Virus record (IMG/VR): IMGVR_UViG_2645727555_000019 | DNA from: a virus | Lineage: Duplodnaviria; Heunggongvirae; Uroviricota; Caudoviricetes | DNA: 11,743 nt | Reading direction: 5' to 3' (one strand) | Shown here: positions 1 through 6,000 of the stretch, one piece after another | Numbering within the stretch: the first letter of the stretch is position 1 | Layout: each line of letters begins with the position of its first letter | Position numbers: made by a program

Positions 1-3000
1 TTCCGTTCATATGAGCAAAAGTGGTGTTGAAGAAACATCCGTTTTGTGATGTTTTTTTAATCTTTTTGGGGTTTTAATTCCTATCGATGAACGTTACGGG
101 CAATTTTCACAGAGTAGTTAAAAGCTACTCTGTGCTTGAACTCACGTAAAGTTTCACCTTCAAGTTTGAAGAAGTGTTTTTCCTCAATGAAACGACCTTT
201 GTTTTCGTGGTGATTCTGGCGAATACGAATAGCTTCTGTGCCGTAAAGGTGCGCCAAAAGTTCGGTAGTGATAACGGGGATCTGCTTGTAAGTAATCGTG
301 GAGAGTGTTTCAACAGAGATTTGAGTTGTCATAATGACGCCCTCGAGTGGTTTCTTAATAACTCACCACCGACGACGCCAATCGTCTGGTGGTGAACTGT
401 GCAGGGTTGGCGTAACCGGGAAACCGACCGGCGCGGATCTCTCCGCCCCCACACAGCCCACCATAATTCAGATGTGCGCGTGCATACGACAATAAAAAAC
501 ACGCTCGCGGCGTGTATCTGTCGCGGTCTCTATCCAGGACGCCAATCCCGACGCCAGATTTTGCTGGCGCGTGAGGAATATAGCCCCGAATAAATCATCA
601 CGTCAATCACCTTGTTTTCCTCGCACGATGTCTTAGCCACCGGATATCCCACAGGTGAGCCGTGTAATTGAAGGCTTTAACGTCAGATTCTTTTGGGATT
701 GGCCTGGGTTTATTTCTGGAACGTTTCGTTGGAAGGTAATTGCAGTTTTCACAGACTATATCGGTAATGCTTCGTCGCTGTCGTCTCATTCATACCTCCT
801 GTCGGTAAATCTGACACCCTGCTCCACAGCCCAGGAAGTTGTGTACTCAATCAGGCTTGCCATACGCTTCACGCTCATCTGCGCACTGCTTTCGCGGATA
901 TTGACGTATTCACCTTCAAGACCAGGCAAAACATCAGCTTCCTGTTTTGTCGCCACGGCATGACCGCTGATTAACAAAACTTTCCACTGTTCTGGTTTTA
1001 GCCATCTGCCGCACCACTGAACCTGTCGGGAGATATCAGCGACCATCGCGTGAAATTTGGCATTTTGATCGAGATTCCGCTTGTAATCGGTGATGCGGAT
1101 CGTAACGGGTTTGTCTTTATCGAGAGTTGTTGCAAGGATGGCGTTAATGGCGAATTGTTGCTGCTGCTTACTTCGGAGGAAGATAGTCTGGTTCATTATT
1201 CCCTCTCACTGGATTTTCCCAACAAAAAAGGAGCCGAAGCTCCTTTAGTTTCAGAATTCAAATTGTCTTGCCCGTAGGCTTTTCAGCATTGGCATGGCCC
1301 GCTGGATAACGGAACTTGACATGTCGAGACGTGTTACCTCCCTCAGTAGCGCGTCTCTGTTCTTCGTCACCATGTAGATGGTCTCAAACGCAATGTCATA
1401 CAGCTTGTTCGTGTATGAGGAGTTCAGCTCTTTCATAATGGGATACAGGTGTTTGCTGATGTCCTGGGCTTTTTCCATCCAGAGCTGCATGTAGCAAAGG
1501 AGGATGATTTCTTCGGCTGTGAATTGTGGCTGAATCTGCGGCTGCTGTTCGGTTGGTGCTGTTTTTCCCTGGCTGAAATAGCAGTCTTCCAGTTTTTCGA
1601 ATACCTCCCACGCCCGATCGGTTTCGAGCATTTTTGCGTGACGGGCTGCGCCGCGTTCTGTCCAGAGGATGAGGGAGCGGGCATTTTTACCAACTAACCC
1701 GATTGTTTCGGGTCTGTTCTTAAACTCGCGTAATTCGTTTTTTTCAATTTTAAAGTAATGCTTTCCGGGCATGAATCGCGTCGTGTTGTTCAGAAAGTTA
1801 TCAGAAATGTTTTTGATTTTTGTTCCGTAAAGGTGAGCCAACAGTTCAGTAGTAATTACGGGGATCTGGTTATAGGTAACAGGGGAAAGGTTTTCGACAG
1901 AAATTTGAACAGCCATAATGACCTCGCGTTTCGATAATTTTTACCTCGCCACCGTCAGGTGCTAATCATCGTGGTGGCGAACTGTGCGGGGTTAGCACTA
2001 CCGGTCGAAACATCCGGCGAGCCTTTCGGCTCCCCCACACAGCCCGCCATAAATCGCGAATGTGACTGTGCTTAGCGCATAAAAAAACCGCCAGCGCGGT
2101 TATGCACCGTTTCGATATCCGGGGTGCTAATCCCGACGCCAGGTTTTGCTGGCGCGTGAGGAATATAGCCCCGAACACGCGACGTTGTCAAACTGATGGC
2201 ATTGCAGATCCCTACGCAATGTAACACTATGTGTTATACATTAATAACGGAACAAAAAATGCGCATTTTTAAAAACGCCTGGTTTGAGCGACTTGCACGC
2301 AAAACAAAATATCCGACCAATCACTGCGCGAAATTGTTAAACAGGCTGATAACGGGCTTATCTCAGCAAACCTGGGTAACGGCGTTATCAAGCAACGTCT
2401 GCCACGAGTCGGTGGCGGCAAATCTGGCGGTTATCGCACAATCATTTTCTATCGCGTCGGCACAAGGGCCTTTTTCGTATATGCATACGCAAAAAATGAA
2501 CGTGAAAATATAACCGCTACTGAGGAAAGTGCATTTCGGAAGGGGCTCCTCACGTACTCAATCTAACAGATGAACAACTGGCACAACTGATTCTACAGGG
2601 TCAGTTTACGGAGGTACCCAATGAGTAAAAATTACCGCAGTGATGCGCTTGCATCCGTACATGAAATGATGGAATCGCTTCATGATATCGGCGCAGTAAC
2701 GAAACAGACTATGCGAGAATTCGATGAAACTTGTCTCCAGCCAGCGCCGGTAATGTCTCCGGAAAGGATCCGTGCACTGCGCGAACGAGAGCATCTGTCT
2801 CAACCTGTTTTTGCCAGATACCTCAACGTCAGTAAAAACCTGATATCAGACTGGGAACGTGGTGTAAAACGGCCGGGAGGTGCCGCTCTTCGCCTTCTTT
2901 CAGTCGTAGAGAAAAACGGAATCCAGGTAATATCATGATACTCCAATACAACAAAACCCGCCGAAGCGGGTTTTCATTAGAAGCACCTTTAGTTTTGCTG

Positions 3001-6000
3001 TTCTATTTTAAGCTTGATAGTTTCATACAAAACAACAGTTGCGCCTGTTTTACATAATTCCCGGCCGTCATACGCACGAGACCAATAACACAACCAGTTC
3101 TCGAGATCTTCTCGAGTATAGGTTTTGCAGGCCAGTCCCTCTGCCATTTCCACGATTTCATCGCCTGGTGCTGTTAACTCATAGCCATTCAACAACAAGA
3201 AGACATAACCAGCCATCATAGCTGTTCGTTTGTTTGCATTAGCAAATGGATGATTCTGAATCAGACTTTCAATCAATACTGATGCCAGTACAAACATGTC
3301 ATTAGTCTGTTCATACCATCGAACCATGCTGGGACGAGACTGAGAAGAACTTAAATTATCAACACTCAGCACACTAACAGGTTCATCTGGTGTTTGAAGC
3401 TCAATTAAAAGGCGATTAATTTCGGTAAGATCATCAAACGAAAGGTAGTGCACTCCTTCAACAATCTCAGCCATAGAGCACAATACCCATCATTACACTT
3501 TTGAAAGTTCTTCCATTGCCTTCTCGTAACGAGAAAAACCGAAATCGAAAGCATTTTTCACCTGCTCACGATGAGTGCAATTTTCATCGATAGCCGGGCG
3601 CGGAGCTGCCACAACGCTTTTATCGCGAGGGGGAATAGTCAATCGCGGGTGTTTTTTTAGTGCGTAGCTCATTGGGTGTACCCTTACTTCTCCGTCCTGT
3701 TCTTTAACAAAAATCAAGTCAATACAAAATTAGTCAGGCTAATGTTGTTAGCATAGCCTAATACCGATCGTATTCACAACCACAGTACGTGAAAAAACCC
3801 GCCGAAGCGGGTTAAGTGCGGGTGCGTTGAGGATGCCTGACACATCAGAGGTGGCGAGGGATTTCTCCCTCGCCTGGTCTCTTACTCCTCAGGTTCGTAA
3901 GCTGTGAAGACAGTGACCTCCGTCTGGCCGGTTCGGATTCGTACCTCGCAGAGGTCTTTCCTCGTTACCAGTGCCGTCACAATGACGGTAATACAGATGA
4001 CGATCAGGGCGACTAACATCGCCTTTTGCTGCTTCATAGCCTGCTTCTCCTTGCCTTTCGGCGCGTAAGAGGCTAACCTACATGTGTCTAGCATGAAATT
4101 GGCCTCAGATTAATGTTAGGCGTCTTGCAGGACGCGTAATGTTAACTGGGGCTTTTCTCTGTCTGCCTTACGGTGGCATGCCCGAGGCAGACAGCCTCAA
4201 GCACCCGCAGCAATTCTACTTAACTCTCGCTTTACCGCAAACCGTTTTTACCCGATATGGGAATTCCCATATCGTAATGAATTCAGTTCCCTAGTCGATC
4301 CATCAAAAACACAACCAGGCAGTAAACGCCCACAACAGCAATAACAGCCAGCGCACCTTCCATTGCCAGTGATATATCATCCGACATATTCCCTCCTTTG
4401 GTGTTAATCCCGGCGAACGTTTTTACCCCCACCGACAAATAACATATACTAAAAAAGTGATAGCCATAGCAACGCCTGTAATTGCAAATGCTTCAGGCCA
4501 GTTCATTGGCGCACCTCCTGCGGCGGTTCTGGTAGCGGCATCCAGTCGGTTACATTGCGGCTCTGTGTTTCGAAAAATTCATCACCATCACGGACTACAT
4601 CAAAAAACTCACCGTCTCGATATTGCGCATAAAGAACGAATGCGCCATCACATAAAATAATTACGTGCTGACCGTCATCCGGCATTCGCTCACTACAGCT
4701 TATCCAACCATCCAGAGTTACCGGATGGTTGGTTGACGTTTCCGAGATTTCCCGAAAATTATTGGTTGACGAACCCTTCTTTTCCCGAAAGTTTCCAGCC
4801 TGAAGCATGGCGGCGCTGTCTGGCGGGGCAGCATATAGCGGCACGTATATTTCCGGTTCCTTATCAGCACCGGGTTGCTCTTCCAGTGAGAATGTCTTTC
4901 CGGTAAATCGATTCATATAAAGCACGGGCTCTGCTTCCAGCGAAGCCTGAGCAACAAGGGCCAGTGCTAAATCCAACTCAATTGCCTCGAGAGAATTTTT
5001 GAATGCTGTCTGTTTTACTGCAAATTTCATCGCCTTTACATTTTCACTAACATGACTGATTAACTGCTCTTTTGTAAAAGTGGTCATCTCATTCTCCTTT
5101 GATGCGAATGCCAGCGACAATTGAAGCCTGATAGCTAATTTACTCACAGTACCGCCTCCTGAAAATTCCCCTGATAGAAAGCCAGCACGCGCTGCATAAC
5201 TTCACTATTCCGGCACTCGCGACAGATTATGTTCAGGCGTCTATCGTAGCGGCGAATTTCTCCGTCTGGTAACTTTCGAATCAATGTCTGGTCAGTTGTT
5301 TTCTCCGGTGTCTTACGCCATACGCGATACACCTGTTCTGATGCAAAAACACCGTATTTACCGGACATGTATAAATCGCCACAAGCCAGTACATCCACAA
5401 GGCAACGTCTGACTGAATGCCAGCCTGCTCCCGTCGCTCTCTCCAGTTGCGATATCGTCATGCGTTCATTTTTGCGTACCAATCCGATAATTCGTGCCTT
5501 CAGTTCTTCCCGCTGTTCGTGTGTAAAAGGTTTCGCCATAAGCGCCTCCGGCAATCACTTTTCCGACACAATACGACCGGATGAATCGACAATCTGTCGA
5601 ACAATATCCCGGTGCTTGTTCAGCTCCCGCAGCGCGGCGCAGACTCGCTCCCACTTCTGGACCTGTTTTTTGGCGCGACGAAGTTCTCGACTGGCAGCAT
5701 GCAGCGATGGAAGCATCACCGAACTGGCAGATTTTTCGGTGAATGATGGAACTTCTCGGATAAACTCATCTGTACTGGCCTTTGCCGTGCTCTCTGATGC
5801 CAACGGAAAACGATTCATTTCATCGCCTGCCGCGCTGTTTTCTGCGTCATGGTGTGATTGCTTATTCTGCGATGATAAGGCGCTCAAATCGCCGTTTTCG
5901 ACATCAGGCATTTTGTAACGGAATTTTCCGTTGCTGATCTCGCGTACCAGGCGTCTCGTTGCTGTTACCACCGCCAACGTGGAAGCAACCTTACGAGTGC

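Follow-up and report, generated by a model that had tools for sequence, protein, structure and literature searches.

A terminator hairpin common to a Doc toxin-antitoxin unit and the neighbouring hok/sok locus as the probable exchange point of small cassettes in lambdoid prophages

In a stretch of 11,743 nucleotides (nt) from a virus of the Caudoviricetes (IMG/VR record IMGVR_UViG_2645727555_000019; the whole stretch is called the window below), which has the early-right/nin region of a lambdoid prophage in reverse orientation, a two-gene unit encoding a Doc-family toxin and its presumed antitoxin lies beside a hok/sok type I toxin-antitoxin locus, and both end in the same 20-nt hairpin. A comparison with related prophages suggested that the Doc unit is a moron-type cassette, present in some prophages and absent from others, that was gained or lost precisely at the shared hairpin. 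The cassette was probably exchanged by short-homology recombination at this hairpin, a generic terminator that neighbouring units have in common. The initial annotation of the window had noted identical 20-mers on both sides of the Doc unit and had suggested that the unit was acquired as a cassette (moron) or moves by recombination between repeated terminators. An exact search found just these two copies. The cassette itself was borne out by its presence or absence at the hairpin in related prophages, but the hairpins are not cassette ends: copy 1 goes with doc and copy 2 with hok.

Both matches of the 20-mer AAAACCCGCCGAAGCGGGTT are on the plus strand of the window (Table 1). No further match was found in the window with up to 3 mismatches, and the number expected from 200 dinucleotide shuffles was 0. 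A repeat search reported the pair as family D20, with a spacing of 841. The identity did not extend past 20 nt, and the flanks are unrelated (caatacaac-hairpin-ttcatta for copy 1 and gtacgtgaa-hairpin-aagtgcg for copy 2). Such a repeat is improbable against shuffled sequence and far less so biologically, since the hairpin is a widely reused terminator.

The anatomy of the two copies was then compared on the minus strand. They have a common design, one that is generic in enterobacteria and their phages, with a five-pair G+C stem, a UUCG tetraloop, an A.U extension, an A-tract before the stem and a U-tract after it; copy 1 reads AAAACCCGC-UUCG-GCGGGUUUUGUUGUAUU, and copy 2 reads AACCCGC-UUCG-GCGGGUUUUUUCAC. 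Copy 1 begins 14 nt past the doc stop codon. Copy 2 begins 68 nt past the hok stop codon, directly after an fbi-like element. A terminator scan called copy 1 on the minus strand with 9 pairs and the tail GTTGTATT, and the corresponding minus-strand RNA folded at -23.7 kcal/mol (z = -5.2). In relatives, the stem after doc showed compensated changes (CCCGC/GCGGG to CCCAC/GUGGG) as well as loop variants. A G-to-A change found in the empty-site allele described below keeps a G.U pair on the minus-strand RNA and gives a C.A mismatch on the plus strand, which fits a function on the minus strand. We therefore regard the two 20-mers as predicted Rho-independent terminators of adjacent minus-strand units, copy 2 serving the hok mRNA and copy 1 serving the antitoxin-doc operon. 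Copy 1 is perhaps bidirectional and may also serve the convergent helix-turn-helix (HTH) antitoxin gene.

To which unit each copy belongs was judged from the hok side and from the doc side separately. The hok gene matched Pfam HOK_GEF (PF01848; 2.9e-22) and carries the RefSeq name hokD, and sok matched Rfam RF01794 with 116.9 bits. The 5' end of the hok mRNA, GGGTGCTTGAGG (4195-4206), is nearly complementary to the fbi-like 3' segment CCTCAACGCACCC (3821-3833). Fold-back of the 5' end onto the 3' end is the expected arrangement at the 3' end of hok mRNAs. With a 2.4-kb query, hokD loci were matched in 4724 of the 5426 complete Escherichia coli genomes, and the edge of hokD homology fell recurrently at query 1694-1695. 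This corresponds to window 3793-3794, the first base of copy 2. The 5426 genomes contain about 9900 places with hok. These results indicate that copy 2 belongs to hok and not to the Doc cassette.

The hok/sok locus of the window is in itself nothing unusual. It resembles those of other lambdoid prophages (hokD/hokW) in its sok match, its Hok/Gef peptide, an overlapping mok-like open reading frame (ORF) and the fbi-type complementarity. Plasmid hok loci differ in that they lack this 3' end at the megablast level, with matches that start after the hairpin. Three further observations concern hok. In some E. coli genomes, IS5-like and IS4-like insertions were present in or beside hokD (hits H47 and H50). 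The match to the K-12 hok ended at query 1952 (window about 4051), and the sok/5' part is replaced there. Finally, hok/sok itself appears to be swappable: loci L165, L166 and L168 share the upstream gene of locus L078, but in place of hok they have a small membrane ORF with another terminator, and the Doc cassette comes next.

On the other side of the cassette, the doc product of 161 amino acids (aa; counted from the RefSeq start, with the ORF open to 3483) matched TIGR01550 DOC_P1 with 122 bits (1.4e-35; cutoff, 38.65) and Pfam Fic/DOC PF02661 (3.1e-11). The 59-aa ORF in front of it had no Pfam or NCBIfam match, and so no match to Phd/YefM or another antitoxin family; its role as the presumed antitoxin is therefore assigned by position. 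Each of the 89 related loci of our comparison set (49 close relatives, at least 92% identical, and 40 distant ones, 67-76% identical) had this ORF beside doc, at 58-100% identity. Inspection of the control region by eye showed a candidate promoter, TTGTGA-18-TATGCT, that overlaps the palindrome AGGCTA-N13-TAGCCT. A consensus promoter scan did not flag this region, as the candidate lay below its threshold. The control region was conserved across cassette copies, with an alternative version in L165 and L168. The unit thus resembles phd-doc of phage P1 in its Doc-family toxin (TIGR01550), in the small ORF that precedes it in the operon and in the palindrome of the control region. It differs from phd-doc in that the 59-aa ORF matches no antitoxin family and in that it resides in a lambdoid prophage rather than in a plasmid prophage.

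The close and distant relatives of doc located copy 1. Among the close ones, 45 of 49 had hok and a hairpin upstream and a hairpin downstream, and L165, L166 and L168 carried the cassette and the downstream hairpin behind a different small gene and terminator, without the upstream copy. None of the 40 distant relatives (in Providencia, Morganella, Yersinia, Kluyvera, Arsenophonus and others) had hok or an upstream hairpin. After doc, 26 of these 40 had the identical 18-nt core or variants of it with compensated stems (AACCCACTTCGGTGGGTT, AGCCCACTTCGGTGGGTT) or altered loops. This pattern indicates that copy 1 is the Doc operon's own predicted terminator. The hairpin was also considered as part of a higBA-like (RelE/HTH) module, and this possibility was rejected: in PhiR12_3 the pair is 94.7% identical and is followed by unrelated sequence without the hairpin. 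A separate group of Doc relatives with 74-76% identity (L184, L186, L188, L192, L194, L199, L204-L206 and L209) also ended in this hairpin. The antitoxin-doc module of that group is located among the tail genes, with a gene for a lambda M-like minor tail protein immediately after it, and the module appears to be an independent placement of this toxin-antitoxin family as a late-operon moron.

Next, we asked what the locus looks like in prophages that lack the Doc unit. The initial annotation had predicted a single copy of the hairpin there, and such a site was found in RM9245, which reads higA...taatacaac-AAAACCCGCCGAAGCaGGTT-aagtgcgggtgcg...hok, that is, one hairpin with the left flank of copy 1 and the right flank of copy 2. 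This empty higA-hairpin-hok junction was present in 168 complete E. coli genomes (RM9245 and 167 others), and the filled arrangement of the window was present in 34. Overall, the segment hairpin-doc-antitoxin-hairpin was found at 90-100% identity in 125 complete E. coli genomes, O104:H4, O157 and O121 strains among them, and all 129 places that it occupied were chromosomal. In its higA flank, the window is 86% identical to the empty allele L001 over 600 nt. Filled and empty pairs for Doc were also found in two further left-flank classes (three in all), in which the DNA to the left and to the right is homologous as far as the hairpin. In addition, Doc cassettes that are 99.3-99.8% identical to each other adjoined four mutually unrelated left flanks, and the switch occurred at the edge of the hairpin. 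The G+C content of the cassette was about 0.40-0.42, compared with 0.47-0.53 in its surroundings.

The same slot accommodates other genes. In L078 it contains a unit of 1348 nt, with a helix-turn-helix-like ORF that has no Pfam match and a Peptidase_M78 (ImmA/IrrE-like) gene. In L011, L022 and L111 it contains a unit of 1835 nt, with a 216-aa ORF and an HTH-Peptidase_M78 fusion. Both M78 cassettes are unrelated to Doc, and they lie in the same slot, on the same strand and behind the same hairpin. The 1348-nt unit occurred in the flank class of one of the Doc pairs, and a matched empty allele for the 1835-nt unit was found in a fourth flank class. Over all cassettes, there were four flank classes in which a filled allele could be matched with an empty one that is homologous to it on either side of the slot.

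Two explanations of the repeat other than exchange at a shared terminator could be weighed directly against these distributions. The first is an artefact or a private duplication, caused by an assembly error or a recent local event. The shortness of the repeat is all that speaks for it, and it is already refuted, as dozens of IMG/VR contigs and 125 complete E. coli genomes contain the full stretch; its probability is negligible. The second is a dedicated mobile element with hairpin ends, mobilized by an HUH transposase in the style of IS200/IS605 or REP/RAYT, or an integron-like attC cassette, or else a target-site duplication. In favour of such an element, a small gene unit is enclosed here by direct repeats, each of them an imperfect palindrome. 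However, the cassette encodes just doc and the 59-aa ORF, with no transposase or recombinase; it occurs without the upstream copy, both in L165, L166 and L168 and in the distant Doc relatives; the right copy stays with hok in genomes without the cassette; the same sequence terminates a core ribosomal-protein operon; and target-site duplications do not always share one 20-bp sequence. We consider this explanation very unlikely, and the target-site duplication, transposon and integron readings were rejected for want of a recombinase gene and because the cassette is found without the upstream copy. The hairpins are best read as ordinary terminators, and their identity is no signature of a special mobile element.

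With an identical sequence at the end of both units, 20-bp direct repeats enclose the 0.84 kb of the Doc unit. It could then be moved by unequal, short-homology crossing-over when co-linear lambdoid genomes pair at their terminator copies. Alternatively, slipped or short-repeat deletion could occur between the two repeats within one genome. By either route a cassette would be inserted, deleted or re-linked seamlessly, and every unit would keep an intact terminator. We infer that the 20-bp identity was the actual recombination substrate. Polymorphisms inside the hairpin that would inform on the crossover were not found; the variants GCAGG (empty allele) and GCGGA (L137 and L181) are at different positions.

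Several findings weigh against this proposal. The identity measures 20 nt, or about 22-24 nt with the A/T runs included. For efficient pairing, the minimal segment has been given as 23-27 bp for Red-beta and 31-34 bp for RecA (PMC3945230). Being at or below these lengths, the identity should make exchange events rare. Joins inside the repeat are, moreover, indistinguishable from illegitimate joins that landed there by luck. No recent event was caught: within the higA flank, the filled and the empty allele have diverged by 14%. Lastly, the E. coli Doc cassette was not found at the other hairpin copies of the genome, and the close copies were concentrated behind hok. Its absence from the other copies speaks against a circle that reinserts freely and favours an exchange in which phage genomes are aligned. 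A free mini-circle hopping to other hairpins found no support, given the position of 45 of the 49 close cassettes behind hok and the chromosomal location of all E. coli copies.

These points bear on the most serious alternative, in which the arrangement is a coincidence: neighbouring units happen to share a common terminator, illegitimate recombination brings cassettes in and out, selection then keeps intact units, and the identity over 20 bp has no role. It is favoured by the generic nature of the hairpin, by each copy being native to its own unit and by an identity shorter than the usual minimal pairing segments (PMC3945230). The same study, by De Paepe et al., reported traces of homology at only about 30% of mosaic joints (PMC3945230). 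Nevertheless, seamless junctions, with no leftover or missing bases, recurred in four flank classes and with three cassettes, and near-identical Doc cassettes were joined to four unrelated flanks exactly at the hairpin edge. If joins fell at random within an intergenic space of about 100 nt, footprints or partly duplicated sequence would often be expected; none were seen. We therefore regard coincidence as a minority explanation, one with perhaps a modest chance of being correct, and retain short-homology recombination at the terminator as the more probable one.

How generic the hairpin is was examined with short probes. A 30-nt probe had matches in all of the 5426 genomes of E. coli, and the median number of matching places per genome was 12. 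The best match, AAAAAACCCGCTTCGGCGGGTTTTTTTATAG in K-12, terminates the core rplM-rpsI operon. The exact 20-mer was present in at least 120 IMG/VR contigs, and 89 of the 126 occurrences examined there had no hok, doc or higA adjoining. Among 50,697 phage records, 2235 were hit at E<=1 by a 38-nt probe that joins the hairpin to a conserved tail; coverage of the probe reached at least 80% in about 870 of them, and the weaker matches are partial. The hosts of these phages include Escherichia, Klebsiella, Vibrio, Salmonella, Pseudomonas and others. The cor moron of phage mEp235 has an annotated rho-independent terminator (L215, 2504-2545), which is a related hairpin that differs from ours in sequence but carries the same tail. 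The initial annotation had held that a widespread generic terminator would refute its proposal, and the hairpin is indeed such a terminator. Its generic nature does not refute exchange at the hairpin, and it explains how two neighbouring units can share 20 identical bases without a duplication caused by insertion.

The tail was noticed on its own account. Outside the hok and doc contexts, TTTTTTATTGCCYGGAG(N5-9)ATG often followed the hairpin, in 25 of 89 non-redundant contexts. Tail positions +5 to +10 were conserved in over half, the tail includes a conserved GCCYG, and the contigs spanned 37-63% G+C. Such loci include L014, L015, L033, L035, L048, L054, L057, L060, L065, L083, L086, L092, L098, L100, L101, L115 and others. 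The gene ending at a tailed hairpin was usually small and of lower G+C, of the membrane, lipoprotein or superinfection-exclusion type, and the gene starting after it was a tail gene (tape measure, lambda M-like or baseplate).

Unrelated accessory genes in phages of 37-63% G+C end in an identical 20-mer, often directly before tail genes, and several slots carry alternative cassettes delimited by the hairpin. We raise, as a speculation that is more likely to fail than to hold, that the hairpin and its conserved tail (UUUUUUAUUGCCYGGAG) together form a portable linker on which morons draw in temperate phages whose hosts are diverse. If short-homology recombination at this sequence were the main route by which morons come and go without seams, it would also explain why the same terminator is found on so many unrelated morons.

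The closest precedent for the proposed exchange is the PeSL system of T4-type phages (Arbiol et al. 2010, PMC2839356; Comeau et al. 2014, PMC4122927). There, repeated terminator-containing motifs flank small accessory genes, and recombination between the motifs has been proposed to insert, delete and swap genes with regulation intact. PeSL shuffling rests on the same logic of filled and empty sites (PMC2839356), with motif-gene-motif in one phage and a single motif in a relative, a pattern that is matched here. The differences are as follows. PeSLs are composites of about 100 bp (promoter plus stem-loop), repeated and specific to hyperplastic regions. In our case only a 20-nt hairpin is shared, in two copies in the window and with different flanks; it is common to host genes, and the phages are temperate prophages. 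Mini-circles have been demonstrated physically for PeSLs, whereas Doc exchange is proposed here from sequence comparison. Should short-homology exchange at the hairpin turn out to be the main route of morons, it would be the temperate-phage counterpart of the PeSL system of T4.

The Doc unit also shares features with the morons of lambdoid phages (a concept of Juhala and Hendrix, reviewed in PMC3594210), being an extra, self-contained unit with its own predicted terminator, a lower G+C content and a patchy presence; its candidate promoter may be a further such feature. The cor moron of mEp235 ends in a related hairpin with the same downstream tail. By analogy with morons, the Doc unit would be expected to be expressed from the repressed prophage. 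In contrast to typical morons, it lies in the early-right/nin region beside hok and not in a late operon, and the moron definition does not extend to a terminator that matches the one next door exactly and marks the point of exchange.

The entry and exit of morons and of small defence or toxin-antitoxin modules are mostly put down to illegitimate recombination plus selection. How such modules enter and leave prophages without damage to their neighbours is the question to which the present locus speaks. It offers a concrete case, in clinically relevant E. coli prophages, of a common terminator that would mark exactly where at least three alternative cassettes, of two genes each, are exchanged beside hok. 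Terminators, morons, hok/sok, Doc modules and recombination at repeated regulatory motifs are already known; what is new here is a specific, well-replicated instance in lambdoid prophages and not a new mechanism. In a literature search we found no description of the hok-adjacent slot or of the shared terminator, and the terminator is not mentioned in the hokW-sokW paper.

The features of the locus are listed in Table 1. On the minus strand, genes of the replication region (DUF1627, DUF977 and DUF551) are followed by hok/sok, the 59-aa ORF and doc. On the plus strand, convergent with doc, there is a RelE-like/HTH antitoxin pair (2196-2938), and beyond it lie an ORF6N antirepressor gene and ninB. 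The E. coli prophage region of AST198 is 100% identical to the window across 2.4 kb around the locus (window 2100-4500).

Table 1. Features at and around the Doc cassette (positions in the window)
Feature	Position	Strand	Basis or remark
HTH (HigA/MqsA-like) antitoxin gene	2621..2938	+	Pfam HTH_3 1e-07; left flank of the slot in the window lineage
Hairpin copy 1 (predicted terminator)	2953..2974 (20-mer, 2953-2972; full stem AAAACCCGC/GCGGGTTTT to 2974)	-	Terminator scan and fold
doc, death-on-curing/Fic-family toxin gene	2989..3474	-	PF02661, TIGR01550, RefSeq annotation in AST198
59-aa ORF, presumed antitoxin (Phd position)	3493..3672	-	Position upstream of doc
Cassette control region, 121 nt	3673..3793	-	Candidate promoter and palindrome
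Hairpin copy 2 (predicted), 3' end of hok mRNA (AACCCGCUUCGGCGGGUUUUUU on the minus strand)	3794..3813	-	hokD homology edge, fold
hok/sok type I toxin-antitoxin locus	3814..4206	-	hok coding sequence 3882-4037, mok-like ORF to 4094, sok match 4032-4206

The RelE/ParE-like toxin gene of the convergent pair (2196-2566, plus strand) appears to be frameshifted, and its HTH antitoxin partner is intact. The N-terminal part of the toxin (MRIFKNAWFERLARK...) and its conserved C-terminal part (...GGYRTIIFYRVGTRAFFVYAYAKNERENI) are in different frames; RefSeq annotates only a 68-aa fragment, and RM9245 has two fragments.

A P1/P7-type immunity RNA module is present in two copies on the minus strand, at 385-583 and 1970-2168, which are 79-92% identical and 1585 nt apart. 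They correspond to the repeat families D2, D3, D8 and D9, at about 234-650 and 1818-2190, and in both of them Rfam models for C4 antisense RNA, its a1b1 targets and isrK were matched. An antirepressor-type gene region lies downstream of each module, and the pair brackets ninB and the ORF6N antirepressor gene. Left of about position 1250, AST198 differs from the window and has a BRO gene instead.

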